64,000 bases of DNA. Origin: Candidatus Yonathbacteria bacterium (lineage in GTDB: Bacteria; Patescibacteriota; Minisyncoccia; Phycocordibacterales; JACNGX01). The notes under the pieces are model-generated. The model saw only the letters and a list, made by a program, of their open reading frames with translations. It made no database searches and was not told the DNA's origin. This document shows, one piece after another, positions 3,026 to 60,860 of the stretch (positions are counted from its first letter, which is position 1; the number at the start of each line of letters is the position of its first letter). Location of the stretch: the NCBI GenBank assembly GCA_013334825.1, contig JAAXWR010000001.1, forward strand, positions 340,731-404,730. Reading direction: 5' to 3'. Position numbers and translations under genes: made by a program.

Positions 3026-3141
3026 ATCGTTTTTGGTGTCAAATGTATTTGAATTTATGCAATGTGTTTTTCTTTTTTCTATTTGCAAATACAGTGCATC
3101 GTATAAAAACAAAAAGACGGGAATAATTCCCGCCTTGACGA

Positions 3142-7524: not shown

Positions 7525-7563
7525 TAATGAGAAAAATATTATACCCTATTCTTTTAAGGAGAA

Positions 7564-7680
7564 GGCCTTTGACCTCCGCATTGTCCCGATGAATTGTGGT
7601 GGACCCTACCGGATTTGAATCCCGAGCTTCGTGGAAGCCCGAGGACAGGCCTTTGACCTCCGCATTGTCCCGATGAATTG
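7564..7680 (-). repeat. Tandem duplicated 3'-half fragments of tRNA-Ala(TGC)
   Basis: Reading the minus strand after the tRNA CCA end: CAATTCATCGGGAC + AATGCGGAGGTCA + a 34-nt insert + TTCAAATCCGGTAGGGTCCACCA. Then CAATTCATCGGGAC+AATGCGGAGGTCAAAGGCC occurs again. This is a direct read of the sequence. Confidence 0.85.
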
Positions 7681-7756
7681 TGGTGGACCCTACCGGATTT
7701 GAACCGGTGACCTCCGCATTGCAAATGCGGCGCTCTACCAACTAAGCTAAGGGCCC
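7681..7756 (-). tRNA. tRNA-Ala(TGC)
   Basis: GGGCCCTTAGCTTAGTTGGTAGAGCGCCGCATTTGCAATGCGGAGGTCACCGGTTCAAATCCGGTAGGGTCCACCA. G3:U70 pair, anticodon loop TTTGCAA, CCA encoded. Confidence 0.95.
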
Positions 7757-26212: not shown

Positions 26213-26410
26213 TTAGATATGTGCGTCTGTTATTGTTTTCTCTAATCTATTGGCAAGCGTAGCGTCAACCATTTTCCCAGTCTCCAAAAGTAATACTTCT
26301 TTGTTTGCAAGAAGTGACTCAAGGACAATTGCACCCAATTCAAGACGAGCAAATATGGCATTTGTCGTCATGAGGAGATCGTCTGAATTTTTTGAATTAG
26401 TGTCAGGCAT
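26213..26410 (-). CDS. Small hypothetical protein
   Basis: ORF track, 65 aa. It is first in the operon. Confidence 0.35.
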   Translation of the reverse strand: MPDTNSKNSDDLLMTTNAIFARLELGAIVLESLLANKEVLLLETGKMVDATLANRLEKTITDAHI

Positions 26411-26490
26411 AGGTGATAGGGACGGATATTCGAATCAAGAATCATGAAGCACGAATCAAGAATACGAAAGGTGAATAGTGCAAGGCGAAG

Positions 26491-26566
26491 TGGTGGACCA
26501 TACCGGACTCGAACCGGTCACCTCATCCATGCCATGGATGCGCTCTACCAGATGAGCTAATGGCCC
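26491..26566 (-). tRNA. tRNA-Ala(GGC)
   Basis: GGGCCATTAGCTCATCTGGTAGAGCGCATCCATGGCATGGATGAGGTGACCGGTTCGAGTCCGGTATGGTCCACCA. G3:U70, anticodon GGC. Confidence 0.93.
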
Positions 26567-26629
26567 GTAGATGTGAGTATAACACATATATACTGCTGAT
26601 GCCAAATGGCATTTTCAAAATTTATTTTC

Positions 26630-26658
26630 TTGCTTCTCATAATATATCGGTGTATGAT
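26630..26658 (+). promoter_or_regulatory. Promoter of tRNA-Val, in a region of divergent tRNA promoters
   Basis: TTGCTT, a 17-nt spacer, then TATGAT, placed 8 nt before the tRNA 5' end. Confidence 0.5.
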
Positions 26659-26666
26659 TTCACCAC

Positions 26667-26742
26667 GGGCGGCTAGCTCAGATGGTTAGAGCGCACGCTT
26701 CACACGCGTGAGGTCACAGGTTCGATTCCTGTGCCGCCCACC
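26667..26742 (+). tRNA. tRNA-Val(CAC)
   Basis: GGGCGGCTAGCTCAGATGGTTAGAGCGCACGCTTCACACGCGTGAGGTCACAGGTTCGATTCCTGTGCCGCCCACC. Anticodon loop TTCACAC. Confidence 0.93.
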
Positions 26743-26975
26743 TGCCTTCGCTAGAGTCTCAATATTGCATGACAAAAATATTTAGAAGCTTCGGCAAGGT
26801 AAGACAGGCGGCAAGCAAAGCAACTGCTTGCTTTGCGACAGGAATCGAACCGAGCACCACTTTTGATATTGCAAAAGTGGTGCTCGACATCCAGCGATAC
26901 TTATAAAAATGCGAGTGCTCGGAGTATTTTTGTTAGTAATCGCGGGACGATTCCTGTGCCGCCCACCTGCCTTCG
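26743..26975 (+). mobile_element. Mini-element at the tRNA-Val 3' end, bounded by a 27-bp direct repeat of the tRNA 3' end
   Basis: DR gattcctgtgccgcccacctgccttcg occurs at 26724-26750 and 26949-26975. The interior holds an 11-bp-stem hairpin (gcaagcaaagc/gcttgctttgc), an inverted tRNA T-arm fragment (ggaatcgaacc), a 14-bp inverted repeat cgagcaccactttt/aaaagtggtgctcg, and CGGGAC immediately before DR2. Confidence 0.6.
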
Positions 26976-27106
26976 GTTCGCTGAAGCGAACCTACGGCGT
27001 GGCAAGCCCGCTTTTGTTTGTACATACAATTGCGAGTATAATGAAAATAATTATTGTACGCGAAAGCGACCTTCGGTTCGCTGAAGCGAACCTACAGTGT
27101 GACAAA

Positions 27107-27180
27107 CGGGATGTAGTACAGTGGTAGTATACACGCTTCGGGTGCGTGAGACCCGAGTTCGATTCTCGGCATCCCGACCA
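27107..27180 (+). tRNA. tRNA-Pro(CGG)
   Basis: CGGGATGTAGTACAGTGGTAGTATACACGCTTCGGGTGCGTGAGACCCGAGTTCGATTCTCGGCATCCCGACCA. Anticodon loop TTCGGGT with G37. Confidence 0.9.
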
Positions 27181-27182
27181 CA

Positions 27183-27226
27183 AAAAAGAAAACAGCACAC
27201 TAAAAAGTGTGCTGTTTTCTTTTTCT
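27183..27226. terminator. Bidirectional hairpin terminator
   Basis: aaaacagcacac-taaaaa-gtgtgctgtttt flanked by A and T runs. Confidence 0.8.
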
Positions 27227-27260
27227 CTACTGATATCAACTTATTTGAAACACTGAAAGA

Positions 27261-27635
27261 TCATATCCTTCCGTAATCATCTTCAAATCGTTCAATATCG
27301 TTCTCGTCAACATTACCTACGGATATTTCTCCAATAGTCGCATCAGTTATCGCGTAAATGCGATGTCGGGTTTCTCGCGGGACAAATATATGCTCACCTT
27401 TTTTCAGATGATATGCTTCCTCATCAAGCATAACGTCAACTTCTCCTTCGAGAACAACCCAGTGTTCGTCTCGTAAAAAATGTCGTTGCAAGGAAATACG
27501 CTCCCCACTCTTGATACAAAGTATTTTGACATGCCACACTCCATCAGCATCTGCCAAATCAGTGAACGAACCCCACGGGCGTTCATCGACAGAAGAAAGT
27601 GTTTTGAATATATGTGTAGACATAGGGTGTATCAT
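27261..27635 (-). CDS. Cupin-type mannose-6-phosphate isomerase (type II PMI cupin domain)
   Basis: ERPWGSFTDL...VKILCIKSGERISLQRHFLRDEHWVVLEGE...GEHIFVPRETRHRI matches the PMI/ManC C-terminal cupin signature. Confidence 0.75.
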   Translation of the reverse strand: MIHPMSTHIFKTLSSVDERPWGSFTDLADADGVWHVKILCIKSGERISLQRHFLRDEHWVVLEGEVDVMLDEEAYHLKKGEHIFVPRETRHRIYAITDATIGEISVGNVDENDIERFEDDYGRI

Positions 27636-32046: not shown

Positions 32047-32120
32047 CGGGCTATCGTACAGTGGTAGTATGCATCCATGGGGTGGATGTGGCAGCGGTTC
32101 GATTCCGCTTAGCCCGACCA
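32047..32120 (+). tRNA. tRNA-Pro(GGG)
   Basis: CGGGCTATCGTACAGTGGTAGTATGCATCCATGGGGTGGATGTGGCAGCGGTTCGATTCCGCTTAGCCCGACCA. Anticodon loop ATGGGGT with G37. Confidence 0.85.
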
Positions 32121-53813: not shown

Positions 53814-54566
53814 TTATTGACGATTTATCGGCGCATCTTGAATCATTTGTACCACACGATCAATATCATCGGTGATCGTATACAAATTTTGGTCACCCTC
53901 AGTAATTGTTCCTTGTTCCTCAAGAAGCATTGAGCGAATAAAGCCATCGAGAGGTTTCCAGAAGTCGCTTCCCATGAGAATAATAGGCAATCGTTCTGTT
54001 TTTTTTGTTTGGACAAGCGTCAATATTTCAAAAAACTCATCCATTGTCCCAAAACCGCCAGGGAAATAAACATATGCCTCAGAGGAATAACTAAGCACTA
54101 CTTTACGCGAAAAGAAATAATAAAATGCCGCTTCATGGTCTACATATGGATTGGTGTGTTGTTCAAACGGTAAATCAATAGTGATACCGATTGATACGCC
54201 ACCACCATCTTTCGCCCCACGATTCCCTGCTTCCATAATACCTGGACCCCCACCTGTAAGAATAGCGTATCCTGTTTCTTCAACAATACGACGTGCTGTT
54301 TCGCGTGCAAGTTTGTAATATTTGTGATGTTCATCAAAACGCGCTGAACCAAACATCGTAACTGATGTTGGATATTTGCGAATTAAATCAAATCCTTGAC
54401 GAAATTCTCTATTGACTGCGCACATTCGCACATCAATACGATCATTGTATTTCTCATTACATTCCTTGCGCATCTCATCCACACTCTCTCGTCCTCCCAT
54501 GCGTTTTTCCTCACGTATTTCATCCTGTGTCATAATAGCAAAAGTATAACACAAAAAATATTTCAA
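53814..54566 (-). CDS. LOG-family protein (cytokinin riboside 5'-monophosphate phosphoribohydrolase / TIGR00730)
   Basis: VTMFGSARF...ILTGGGPGIMEAGNRGA...PGGFGTMDEFFE motifs. It has an approximately 70-aa N-terminal extension. Confidence 0.8.
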   Translation of the reverse strand: MKYFLCYTFAIMTQDEIREEKRMGGRESVDEMRKECNEKYNDRIDVRMCAVNREFRQGFDLIRKYPTSVTMFGSARFDEHHKYYKLARETARRIVEETGYAILTGGGPGIMEAGNRGAKDGGGVSIGITIDLPFEQHTNPYVDHEAAFYYFFSRKVVLSYSSEAYVYFPGGFGTMDEFFEILTLVQTKKTERLPIILMGSDFWKPLDGFIRSMLLEEQGTITEGDQNLYTITDDIDRVVQMIQDAPINRQ

Positions 54567-54651
54567 ACAAAAAACTTCTGGCGCGATAGAAAAAATATGT
54601 TATGATATGCGAACATGAACACATGGTATAGAGTCTGTTCATGTGTCGTAA

Positions 54652-54722
54652 TGCCAGATCGTCTAATGGTAGGACAGCGGGTTTTGGTCCCGTCAATCTA
54701 GGTTCGAGTCCTAGTCTGGCAA
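54652..54722 (+). tRNA. tRNA-Gln(TTG)
   Basis: TGCCAGATCGTCTAATGGTAGGACAGCGGGTTTTGGTCCCGTCAATCTAGGTTCGAGTCCTAGTCTGGCAA. U1:A72, anticodon loop TTTTGGT, CCA not encoded. Confidence 0.88.
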
Positions 54723-55010
54723 CAAATGTAAAACGGCCTTATGGGCCGTTTTACATTTGTTGCCAGAAGCAGGGCGACTGCTCGCCCTGCGACTAGGACT
54801 CGAACGGCTCGGCGATGTCGGACCGAGCACCACTTACAAAAAATTCCTAAAAAGTGTTAGAGATATTTTCCAAATAATAAAGCCTCTCTATGATGTTATC
54901 TGAAAGTGGTGCTCGAGACGACCGCGAGCCGCGTCCAGGAGTACTTTGCGTATTGCGAATACTTGGAGCAATACGCTTAGTAACTCCGGGACGAGTCCTA
55001 GTCTGGCAAC
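54723..55010 (+). mobile_element. Mini-element at the tRNA-Gln 3' end bounded by an 18-bp direct repeat of the tRNA 3' end. It is homologous to the tRNA-Val element.
   Basis: DR gagtcctagtctggcaac occurs at 54705-54722 and 54993-55010. The interior holds a perfect 16-bp-stem hairpin (caaatgtaaaacggcc/ggccgttttacatttg), the hairpin cagggcgactgctcgccctg, an inverted tRNA-Gln T-arm fragment (gactaggactcgaac), an inverted repeat ggaccgagcaccactt...aagtggtgctcgag, and CGGGAC immediately before DR2. Confidence 0.6.
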
Positions 55011-55085
55011 TCCATAAAAAAATTAAAATATCAATACAAGCCTCCTCTCGCAACTTCCACCCACACAGAGTATACTAGACGACAT

Positions 55086-55712
55086 ATGGAATATGCGGAC
55101 GACACAGAAAGCATCTATGACTTTCTCAAGTATATACGTCAATTTGAAACTACCTATCGTTTTACCACAAAGCCAGGTAGCGGATTTGAAAGTGATGCCG
55201 AACATTCTTGGTCGGTCGCATTTGCGTGTATGCTCCTTGCGGGACGACTTGAACACGAATTCGGCGTCCACCTTGACCAAGCTCGCATGCTCAACATGGC
55301 ACTCGTCCACGACCTTGCCGAAATGATAGCAGGAGACACAAAGCCATGGGACGAAAAAGCTCGCATCGGAAAAAACGAAAGAGAACAAGACGCCATCGTG
55401 TCCATTGTAAAGAATCTTCCCAAAGATATGCGAGAAAACGTCCTCGCTTTATGGGAAGAATCAGAACAATGCGAAACACTTGAAGCAAAAATAGTAAAAT
55501 CTCTTGATAAGCTTGACCCGGAAATACATAGGGTCACACACCACATTGCATGGCAAGAAATTATGGATGAAATACACGCAACCCGTGAAGCGTGTGATGC
55601 GCGCCATATCCCCCATCACAGCTTTTCAACAACACTCACATCACTCTACGAAACCACCCGCAAAGAAGCGCTGGAAAAAGGAATGCTGAAGGCGGAGAAA
55701 ACGTCCATCTAA
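55086..55712 (+). CDS. HD-domain phosphohydrolase (YfbR-like 5'-deoxynucleotidase family)
   Basis: SDAEHSWSVAFACMLLA...LVHDLAEMIAGDT carries the HD motif. Confidence 0.8.
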   Translation: MEYADDTESIYDFLKYIRQFETTYRFTTKPGSGFESDAEHSWSVAFACMLLAGRLEHEFGVHLDQARMLNMALVHDLAEMIAGDTKPWDEKARIGKNEREQDAIVSIVKNLPKDMRENVLALWEESEQCETLEAKIVKSLDKLDPEIHRVTHHIAWQEIMDEIHATREACDARHIPHHSFSTTLTSLYETTRKEALEKGMLKAEKTSI

Positions 55713-60334: not shown

Positions 60335-60343
60335 GATATATGA

Positions 60344-60860
60344 AGGACCGTATCTATAAGCCGGATTCTGTCTCGACATGACGTCGCAAAGGATATCAGG
60401 TCAAGGACAACGATTTATCTGGGACGTACGTCACCGCACGCCTCAAGCGGCACTCAAAGCATCATAGTGATGCCCAGCACGGCCTTGCACACAGGTAAGG
60501 ATTTAGCCGTTTCACCTCTTGCGTTACCGCAAGAACTAGTCCAGCCCCACTTTTGGTCATATGTACATATACACACGTCTCTCAATGAACATCATGACTT
60601 GTGCATACTATTCGACCAAAAGTGGAGCTGGAATCCGATTTCTTTCGAAATACGGCGTCTCTGCTCGCACCTCTTCGAACCCTTCGATCCGATGACAGGC
60701 GTTACCTGCTACCTATGACATACACCACGAAGATTACATGCCAAGCCATTTGTACACCACAAAGCGTGTACAGACCTGCCATGCACCCTACGTGGTGCAT
60801 GGTGTGTCCGGACTTTCCTCTGTCACAAAAAGCAACAGCCGTTGTCCAATACGGTATGTC
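60344..60860 (-). ncRNA. rnpB: RNase P RNA (bacterial type A) carrying an approximately 88-nt insertion between P4 and P5/P7 and an extended P12
   Basis: Minus-strand motifs: GAGGAAAGTCCGGAC (P4 5' strand), CATAGGTAGCAGGTAACGCCTG, GCGAGCAGAGA, GAGGTGAAACGG, TGCAAGGCC, GCTTGAGG and ACAGAATCCGGCTTAT (P4 3' strand). P1 is ACCGTAT/ATACGGT and P2 is GGACAACG/CGTTGTCC. Confidence 0.9.

Follow-up and report, generated by a model that had tools for sequence, protein, structure and literature searches.

Patescibacteria have tiny genomes and are thought to be poor in mobile elements. Closest in their working to what we describe here are the integrative elements that target transfer RNA (tRNA) genes (prophages, islands and cis-mobilizable remnants), which employ tyrosine integrases acting on an attB in the T-loop or the anticodon loop; Williams reportedly sorted the attB sites of tyrosine integrases in tRNA genes into sublocation classes of this kind in 2002. 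Within the same phylum, group I introns have been described in tRNA genes, where they lie at position 35/36 of the anticodon loop, match the group I model and are self-splicing (Nakagawa et al. 2026, PMC13011429). Here we analyze a 64,000-nt stretch of the genome of a Candidatus Yonathbacteria bacterium (hereafter the window; positions 340,731 to 404,730 of the 450-kb contig JAAXWR010000001.1, with all window-level searches covering these 64 kb) and report that its tRNA-Val(CAC) and tRNA-Gln(TTG) genes are each followed by a structured unit that carries, on a common core, sense and antisense copies of parts of the very tRNA behind which it sits. With moderate confidence, we propose that these inserts represent a non-autonomous, tRNA-specific mobile mini-element of about 140-290 nt that encodes no protein.

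The window holds seven tRNA genes, with tRNA-Val(CAC) situated between the minus-strand tRNA-Ala(GGC) (26491-26566) and tRNA-Pro(CGG). All units, those behind tRNA-Val and tRNA-Gln included, follow one layout: the 3' half of the tRNA (X); an optional hairpin or spacer; an arm (X'); a hairpin H2; a conserved hairpin H3; and a second copy of X. The arm X' is made up of its own tRNA's 5' acceptor strand, the 5' strand of the T-stem and the complement of T-loop positions 56-60, and has two possible partners, namely the tRNA's own 3' half or the distal copy of X. Pairing with the latter gives a closed three-way junction in which the acceptor/T-stem stack of the respective tRNA is mimicked, both units folding into P1 (the acceptor mimic, 6-7 bp), a hairpin H1, P2 (the T-stem plus half of the T-loop, 10-11 bp), H2 and H3. 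An alignment of 11 units has a three-way junction as its consensus, with compensatory changes at 20 of the 33 pairs, and furnished the covariance model R1 used below. The Val locus resolves into the following features:

26667-26742, plus strand: tRNA-Val(CAC), intact, host of the unit (ARAGORN; Rfam tRNA, 69.2 bits).
26723-26750, plus strand: proximal copy of the 28-nt direct repeat CGATTCCTGTGCCGCCCACCTGCCTTCG (repeat search, 100% identity).
26751-26806, plus strand: AT-rich spacer between tRNA-Val and the structured unit (from the sequence); missing from the orthologous units of loci L036 and L040.
26807-26812, plus strand: GGCGGC, a copy of the tRNA-Val 5' acceptor strand (RNA fold); its partner is either GCCGCC at 26958-26963 (P1) or the 3' strand of the tRNA itself.
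26815-26836, plus strand: hairpin H1, 9 bp with loop CTGC (RNA fold); the Gln unit has the same loop on another stem sequence.
26838-26851, plus strand: antisense T-arm ACAGGAATCGAACC, the exact reverse complement of tRNA-Val 26719-26732 (14 nt; repeat search, P2 covariation).
26851-26886, plus strand: hairpin H2, a perfect 15-bp stem CGAGCACCACTTTTG / CAAAAGTGGTGCTCG (inverted-repeat search).
26890-26947, plus strand: hairpin H3, the most conserved module, with covarying stems: GTCC-AG-nnn-TACTT-n8-GCGARTRCTYGGAG-n8-TTAGTAA-nnn-C-GGGA.
26948-26975, plus strand: distal copy of CGATTCCTGTGCCGCCCACCTGCCTTCG, the tail, contiguous with the ancestral 3' flank (repeat search; alignment of filled and empty sites).
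26829-26966, plus strand: three-way-junction core of the Val unit (R1 116.6 bits, E 8e-31; 9 bits on the minus strand).

The 28-nt repeat spans the T-loop from C56, the acceptor 3' strand and about 8 nt of the trailer, and the first 10 nt of the antisense T-arm pair with the tail to form P2. The stem sequence of H2 is shared with the Gln unit only and differs in the orthologous Val units of relatives. The features of the Gln locus are:

54652-54723, plus strand: tRNA-Gln(TTG), host of the other unit (tRNA prediction).
54705-54723 (proximal) and 54992-55010 (distal), plus strand: the 19-nt repeat CGAGTCCTAGTCTGGCAAC (repeat comparison).
54723-54759, plus strand: terminator-like hairpin separating tRNA-Gln from the unit (sequence, fold).
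54760-54766, plus strand: TTGCCAG, the 5' acceptor strand part of the arm.
54769-54790, plus strand: H1, loop CTGC.
54791-54805, plus strand: antisense T-arm GACTAGGACTCGAAC, 15 nt.
54784-55010, plus strand: covariance-model match of the Gln unit (R1 113.6 bits), with H2 holding an extra hairpin of about 95 nt.

P1 and P2 measure 6 and 10 bp in the Val unit and 7 and 11 bp in the Gln unit, with fold z-scores of -10.9 and -10.6, respectively. Most stem positions of H3 differ between the two units yet stay paired, with the loop GCGARTRCTYGGAG and the TACTT/TTAGTAA segments conserved. At both loci, a block of identity, like that between an attL and an attR, starts in a tRNA loop and reaches or passes the 3' end of an intact tRNA (28 nt at Val and 19 nt at Gln, both from C56). 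Searches of the two regions (26300-27300 and 54500-55100) against Rfam 15 at gathering and permissive thresholds returned the tRNAs and noise only, with nothing relevant at E up to 10, and the inserts of about 200-270 nt hold no conserved open reading frame (ORF). An 83-codon TTG-start ORF (26833-27084, plus strand) crosses the structured unit as well as the first copy of a 36-nt repeat and a promoter-like segment discussed below; we take it as spurious because relatives, in which the spacer is replaced, show no conservation of coding sequence here. No target in trans complementary to the conserved H3 loop was found above chance in the window. The preliminary description of this DNA had recognized the Val insert as a second copy of a mini-element at the Gln locus and had spoken of a regenerated repeat at the tRNA-Val 3' flank. 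The element copies are borne out, with R1 matching the Val and Gln units and no third place in the 64 kb, as is the regeneration, with bracketing repeats of 28 and 19 nt. What that description had missed is the main feature, i.e., the antisense T-arm, the copy of the acceptor strand and the conserved, covarying three-way junction.

The arms of the units are specific to the tRNA that hosts them. Across 28 first units, the longest complementary run has a mean of 10.9 nt to the unit's own tRNA as against 6.2 nt to other tRNAs. In L045 (labels of this form denote the loci fetched for comparison), the arm keeps the G of the G.U acceptor pair of tRNA-Glu; hence, it copies the 5' strand and does not simply complement the 3' strand. 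Among the T-arm-type units (24 compared), the acceptor part of X' keeps its match to the tRNA, with 0.9 mismatches in 7, whereas the acceptor part of the distal copy decays (2.8 in 7); the T-arm portion of that copy, from which P2 is formed, is retained. Indeed, the acceptor half of the minihelix mimic is gone in many relatives. The complementary segments thus vary with the target while the core is held in common. For instance, the 57-nt H3 is the same, down to its non-conserved stem positions, in the Lys(CTT) unit of L038 and in the Phe units of L032/L039/L057; H2 is nearly so, and the arms are specific to the respective tRNAs.

Beyond the window, R1 recovered 55 matches with 45 distinct sequences in the fetched loci, which are metagenome contigs of Paceibacteria. 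In the alignment of these matches, which is fitted to the model, 92.9% of cells are paired, compared to 70.6% in shuffles and 35-46% when the partners are slid, and changes on both sides are seen at 32 of the 33 pairs, again as fitted to the model. Wherever enough upstream sequence is available, an R1 match has a same-strand tRNA no more than 430 nt upstream of it. Units are hosted by at least 20 isoacceptors (of Val, Phe, Lys, Arg, Ser, Ala, Tyr, Gly, Glu, Pro, Ile, Trp, Cys and Gln), and 42 of the 56 distinct tRNA genes in the sampled loci and the window have an R1 match. A search with a pattern derived from H3 retrieved 35 metagenome contigs and, among the GTDB representatives, a single genome, namely a Candidatus Paceibacterota metagenome-assembled genome with three successive units behind tRNA-Arg(CCT). 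Tandem arrays are present in L050, L037/L061, L030 and L044.

The family is modular, with some units carrying extra hairpins (a UGUAA-loop hairpin or a second GCGAAUGCUUGGAGC loop) and other members having a different H3 or a short arm that covers just the last 4-5 nt of the tRNA. The longer units (L037 84-316, L061 276-505, L033 12175-12405, L055 5070-5150 and L030 ~1800-2000) present additional conserved modules, namely a second GCGAAUGCUUGGAGC-loop hairpin as well as a GGUGUAC segment with a UGUAA-loop hairpin behind it, the stem of which covaries. Terminator-like hairpins separate many units from their tRNA. A loop of the form (A)ACUGCU(U) or ACUUCU recurs on unrelated stems in the terminator-like hairpins of L042, L052, L054 and L056 and in H1 of the Val, Gln, Lys and Phe units, suggesting that the "terminator" between tRNA and unit is itself a module of the element. 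The H3 motif and a relaxed version of it are absent from the 2.9 million viral contigs of IMG/VR, and a phage-borne version was accordingly rejected; a pattern for the H2 stem (AAGTGGTGCTCGA...TCCAG), which is not conserved across the family, gave 29 chance matches in coding DNA of viral contigs, none with a partner arm. Literature searches turned up no description of these units, which constitute an undescribed, large and covarying family.

The Val site is polymorphic among relatives. We located orthologous Ala-Val-Pro clusters via homologues of the flanking cupin gene (no exact protein match to the window's cupin gene is on record). Filled sites are found in L071/L072 (96% cupin-protein identity), L036, L040 and L050: the unit abuts tRNA-Val in L071/L072, likewise in L050, where there are at least two tandem copies, and in L036 and L040, where it lies without a terminator between two tRNAs. 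In L073-L076 (73% protein identity) the site is empty, with the same Ala/Val/Pro cluster, an identical tRNA-Val ending in CCCACCA and 70 nt to tRNA-Pro; in L077/L078 (74% protein identity) it is truncated, with the first 18 nt of the unit (AGGCGGCAAGCGATGCAA) left. Thus, one and the same site is observed in occupied and empty versions, as is characteristic of tRNA-targeting elements. In an alignment with the empty site, the distal repeat copy of L040 and its flank match the 3' end of the tRNA and the sequence that follows it there; therefore, the unit corresponds to the insertion or deletion of one repeat period, and the empty/filled pair is a clean substrate for experiments. The empty-site tRNA-Val encodes a full CCA (CCCACCA; L073 ~3117-3125); at the filled sites, neither repeat copy encodes it (CCCACCT in the window, 26740-26744 and 26965-26969; CCCACA and CCCACCC in L036).

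At the Gln site, the sole syntenic relative found (identical tRNA-Gln; flanking protein 59% identical) carries a unit of a different core type to which R1 is blind, and no empty version was encountered. That unit (L067/L068, 2276-2450) has the same arm logic (TTGCCAAACGAGGACTCGAAC ... CTCCTAGTCTGGTAAC); since R1 misses its core, the family is wider than one model. A further contrast between occupied and unoccupied sites is provided by tRNA-Pro(GGG), which in L040 has a unit behind it (1289-1533, R1 71.6 bits) and in the window (32047-32120) has no unit, repeat or antisense copy.

We favor reading the units as selfish mobile DNA on account of several features: (i) the repeats begin in a tRNA loop and restore the tRNA; (ii) units form arrays; (iii) decayed and truncated copies are present; (iv) orthologous sites can be empty; (v) one core is common to different tRNAs; (vi) the core at a given tRNA is subject to turnover. 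A fixed host gene would not be expected to behave in this way. Briefly, a unit would enter at the T-loop or the 3' end of a tRNA gene in such a way that the gene stays intact and its old 3' end is pushed downstream. The target would be chosen via the X/X' arms, read in single-stranded form as either DNA or RNA, and the catalyst would be supplied in trans, by a tyrosine recombinase from the class acting on tRNA loops or by an HUH-type single-strand transposase, which would read the pairing of guide and target as in IS200/IS605. Each of the two chemistries fits a part of the picture, as a candidate rather than a demonstrated mechanism. The Val and Gln units may be products of site-specific recombination. 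It is tempting to go further and see in them a new class of mobile elements without protein genes whose targeting is programmed by pairing, in which X' would read the 3' half of the tRNA as a single strand, H2/H3 would recruit the enzyme acting in trans, and the arms would be rewritten at each new tRNA; this we offer as a speculation that is rather unlikely to hold.

Several points weigh against a mobile element. Recombinases, transposases and reverse transcriptases are absent from the 20 window ORFs scanned, which are mostly of the housekeeping type, and from the recurrent neighbors of the units; hence, the mobilizing activity is hypothetical. The same 20 ORFs, from 64 kb of the 450-kb contig, include no Y1 (HUH) transposase, an all-against-all comparison of 276 ORFs from 36 loci for a linked protein yielded syntenic families only, and no TnpA was found here. 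In none of the loci does an ORF for TnpB, IscB or a DEDD recombinase adjoin a unit. No circular or excised form was encountered. Precise deletion between the repeats would also give presence and absence, so that units may have been lost as well as gained; gene conversion among resident units, and not transposition, could have placed the same core at different tRNAs; and the rewriting of both arms for a new tRNA has no explanation. Further, both strands fold about equally well, for which reason a strand assignment from folding energy was rejected; together with the modest excess of G.U over A.C (43 to 21, in the model-fitted alignment), this leaves RNA and single-stranded DNA indistinguishable. 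Finally, the high occupancy of tRNA genes and the lack of a terminator in L036/L040 would equally suit a host RNA co-transcribed with tRNAs.

The last point leads to the main rival explanation, which we deem possible if rather unlikely: the units are resident host RNAs, i.e., spacers or trailers of tRNA operons that are co-transcribed and closed by a minihelix mimic on which RNase P and the 3'-end machinery act to free them for a cellular role (e.g., in tRNA metabolism), with the copies stemming from local duplication of the adjacent tRNA's 3' half. Such an origin agrees with the position of the units, which are always on the tRNA strand and directly downstream, and with those of L036/L040, which abut tRNA-Val without a terminator and lie between two tRNAs; however, in many other cases, including Gln, terminator-like hairpins stand between the unit and its tRNA. 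The acceptor/T-stem stack is recognized by RNase P, RNase Z and the CCA-adding enzyme, P1 and P2 together reproduce at least 12 bp of such a stack, including the G.U of tRNA-Glu in L045, and the RNase P RNA is encoded in the window. The strong conservation of the H3 loop, the covariation of its stems and the high occupancy of tRNA genes would also be expected of a functional RNA. Yet the empty site in relatives with an identical tRNA-Val implies that the unit is dispensable, just two of the seven tRNAs of the window have a unit behind them, and the arrays, decayed or truncated copies and core swaps bear the stamp of selfish DNA.

Two other explanations are less likely than a host RNA. The units could be remnants of a guide RNA of a nuclease or recombinase, comparable to omega RNA (TnpB/IscB) or bridge RNA (IS110), with the core as the scaffold and the tRNA 3' end as the guide or target segment. 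We consider this quite improbable: there is a structured scaffold followed by about 20 nt identical to the target, the conserved 5' half of the T-loop lies just upstream of the target like a fixed adjacent motif, and the arms vary per target, but the ORFs for TnpB, IscB or a DEDD recombinase that should be adjacent are missing, Rfam gives no omega-RNA or HEARO match, the presumed guide is paired in cis, and the two bipartite loops of bridge RNAs are not seen. Least probable of all is that they are scars of integrase-carrying islands or prophages, left between attL and attR after deletion of the cargo, for although the repeats run from the T-loop (the anticodon loop in the Ala(TGC) remnant described below) to the tRNA 3' end and there are arrays with decayed distal copies, random deletion would not yield a common 140-nt covarying structure over at least 20 tRNA species and dozens of contigs or leave behind a tRNA-matched antisense arm, no gene-bearing unit of intermediate size was seen, and the viral contigs lack the H3 motif.

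Returning to the units as putative mobile mini-elements, other tRNA loci of the window include the following:

7563-7703, minus strand: decayed duplication behind tRNA-Ala(TGC) (tRNA at 7681-7756), a 57-nt direct repeat (7703-7647 / 7619-7563) with an 84-nt period.
27107-27180, plus strand: tRNA-Pro(CGG), which has a perfect terminator hairpin (27183-27224) and no unit behind it.

The second copy of the tRNA-Ala(TGC) 3' end, which starts from T54, is preceded by ...CTCGGGA, the right-end motif of the Val and Gln units. R1 gives no match at this locus, which folds weakly (z -1.8); what is left has the look of units reduced by extensive deletion, with junctions in the T-loop and the anticodon loop, each preceded by CGGGA. 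In its trailer, AATGCGGAGGTCA, a copy of tRNA positions ~37-48, comes directly after CGGGAC. Behind the other tRNA-Ala gene, the minus-strand tRNA-Ala(GGC), a short tandem repeat of GAATCAA (4.6 copies, 26432-26463) is seen just past the 3' end. The RNase P RNA (class A, 60341-60857, minus strand; 90.9 bits, slightly below the gathering score of 100) contains an additional hairpin at 60541-60631 (about 90 nt; arms CCAGCCCCACTTTTGG / CCAAAAGTGGAGCTGG). Such hairpin inserts form a separate family, in which the interior is AT-rich and the arms are of the type CCAGCYCCASTTTCAT / ATGAAASTGGRGCTGG; its sites are the H2/H3 loops of some units (26851-26886, 54824-54915, and those of Arg(CCT) in L032/L039/L057), an inter-tRNA spacer (Val-Pro in L036/L071/L072) and the RNase P RNA. 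A variant arm, CGAGCACCACTT, occurs in H2 of both window units and is lacking in the orthologous Val units of relatives. These distributions suggest either a loop-targeting miniature element or conversion between units.

Between the Val unit and tRNA-Pro(CGG) lies a second repeat, with these features:

26970-27005, plus strand: first copy (copy 1) of the 36-nt repeat; a palindromic hairpin, GGTTCGCT-GA-AGCGAACC, lies within it.
27014-27042, plus strand: promoter-like TTGTTT (27014-27019), 17 nt, TATAAT (27037-27042), between the copies (from the sequence).
27070-27105, plus strand: copy 2, ending 1 nt before tRNA-Pro, 33/36 identical (92%).

In the preliminary description this appeared as a 28-bp repeat at 26969-26996 and 27069-27096, flanking a TTGTTT-17-TATAAT sequence ahead of tRNA-Pro(CGG) and beginning inside the tRNA-Val repeat, and the whole tRNA cluster was viewed as a hotspot of repeated site-specific recombination. 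The repeat is genuine, with its coordinates shifted by one and its true length being 36 nt, within which an exact 26-mer, CCTTCGGTTCGCTGAAGCGAACCTAC, is found at 26970-26995 / 27070-27095. It does flank the promoter-like sequence, and copy 1 does begin in the Val repeat, overlapping its last 6 nt (26970-26975). A chance similarity is also disfavored, with the palindromic core GGTTCGCTGAAGCGAACC occurring at two places only in the window as against 0.04 expected by chance. As a scar of site-specific recombination, the repeat fares poorly: it is absent from all 65 loci fetched by the time of the search; each copy is palindromic, so that the two are inverted as well as direct repeats; and in the closest relatives (96% identical flanking protein) the Val-Pro spacer is a different one, namely a cassette of about 100 nt bracketed by the inverted repeat CCAGCCCAAGTTTCAT / ATGAAACTTGAGCTGG. 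A consensus promoter scan did not call TTGTTT-17-TATAAT, because the first hexamer matches TTGACA at 3/6, and Tandem Repeats Finder did not call the 100-nt period of the repeat (1.36 copies).

Most simply, the 36-nt repeat is a lineage-private local duplication of a palindromic spacer hairpin, enclosing the promoter-like segment. That it is instead an att-type scar of a further site-specific insertion, one that brought the tRNA-Pro promoter, is in our estimate a distinctly weak prospect. Such a scar would account for a direct repeat that brackets a 64-nt AT-rich segment with TATAAT and starts inside the Val repeat, and for the different repeat-bracketed cassette in the orthologous spacer of close relatives; however, the repeat is unique to the window and bears no resemblance to the unit family, its palindromic copies, which make up 1.36 periods only, can be accounted for by slippage or duplication inside a hairpin, and neither an enzyme nor a second example is known. 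We found nothing to link the repeat to site-specific recombination. Copy 1 is followed by GGCGTGGCAAGCCCGCTTTTG, which on inspection resembles the 5' arm of a unit with a collapsed H1 and may be the stump of a second unit. That tRNA genes are hotspots for the unit family is upheld by the Val and Gln units, the decayed Ala(TGC) locus, the tandem arrays and the site polymorphism, with synteny showing the Val site to be empty, truncated or filled in related genomes; the 36-nt repeat has to be struck from this list.

If the units are mobile, they would be the smallest tRNA-targeting elements known, and the use of one structured core with sense and antisense arms that copy the host tRNA would imply target recognition by base pairing as opposed to a protein-DNA code. 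They would then offer a lead for retargetable insertion systems and represent a source of genome plasticity in Patescibacteria; were targeting indeed programmed by pairing, ultra-small bacteria would possess a natural, retargetable guide system for tRNA genes. Even if they are host RNAs, there is a large, undescribed, covarying RNA family at 42 of the 56 sampled tRNA genes. The partial tRNA copies within the units confound the annotation of tRNAs and islands.

How do these units compare with described systems? With the tRNA-targeting integrative elements they share the repeat from a loop to the 3' end, the restored tRNA, the displaced old 3' end, tandem accretion and presence/absence variation. 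They differ in being 140-290 bp long without any gene, the integrase that defines the integrative elements included, and in having a covarying single-strand fold in the position of the cargo, the antisense of the target built into the element, and one core combined with dozens of tRNA specificities. A structured core with an antisense arm is not known from any described integrative element. The IS200/IS605 elements and their miniature derivatives (PATEs) are likewise small, strand-specific and built of hairpins. In them, a guide at the foot of a hairpin pairs with the flank and the right-end cleavage site, an arrangement with which the layout of the units is compatible, and their order of target, linker, guide, hairpin ... 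hairpin and target-like end resembles that of X, t, X', H2, H3 and X. However, there the known guides are 4-5 nt long, two in number and directed to short-motif targets, whereas here a single, putative shared guide of 10-22 nt would be directed to tRNA genes.

The bridge (seek) RNAs of IS110/IS1111 offer a precedent for a structured non-coding RNA of a mobile element with reprogrammable segments complementary to the target. They are encoded beside a DEDD recombinase gene, and their guides, which are bipartite and have only a 2-nt core in common, sit in two internal loops; the units, by contrast, have no DEDD/RuvC-like recombinase gene beside them and present one uninterrupted arm, a repeat of 19-28 nt and a three-way junction. 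Folded single-strand recombination sites, such as the attC of integrons and the attP hairpin of CTX phage, resemble the units in that structure is kept while sequence varies, a duplex target is recreated intramolecularly and arrays are formed. The units depart from these in their conserved loops, far more elaborate multi-helix junction and tRNA-gene target, and no integron integrase or Xer context was identified for them.

Among RNA elements, the group I introns of Patescibacteria are comparable in their phylum, in being small and associated with tRNA genes, and in that an internal segment of the unit has both flanks as possible pairing partners, in the manner of an internal guide sequence. 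An assignment to this class was rejected, as neither locus gives an RF00028 match at E up to 10, the fold has three helices only and no P3-P9 core, and the tRNA upstream of the insert is complete, leaving the host gene uninterrupted. Hammerhead and other small ribozymes were set aside too, the junctions misfitting the hammerhead core on inspection and Rfam yielding no match. Lastly, P1 and P2 amount to an acceptor/T-stem coaxial stack, as in tRNA-like minihelix mimics (the tRNA-like domain of transfer-messenger RNA (tmRNA), mascRNA, viral tRNA-like structures and the t-elements of plant mitochondria), and a continuous acceptor plus T-stem stack of about 12 bp closes the molecule. Unlike in those mimics, T-loop and D-loop are lacking, with H2 and H3 in the position of the T-loop, the helix is an exact copy of the adjacent tRNA, and its acceptor half is often decayed. 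In conclusion, the units are neither group I introns nor bridge RNAs, they match no Rfam family, and literature searches yielded no described counterpart. We favor the view that this family is tRNA-targeting mobile DNA.

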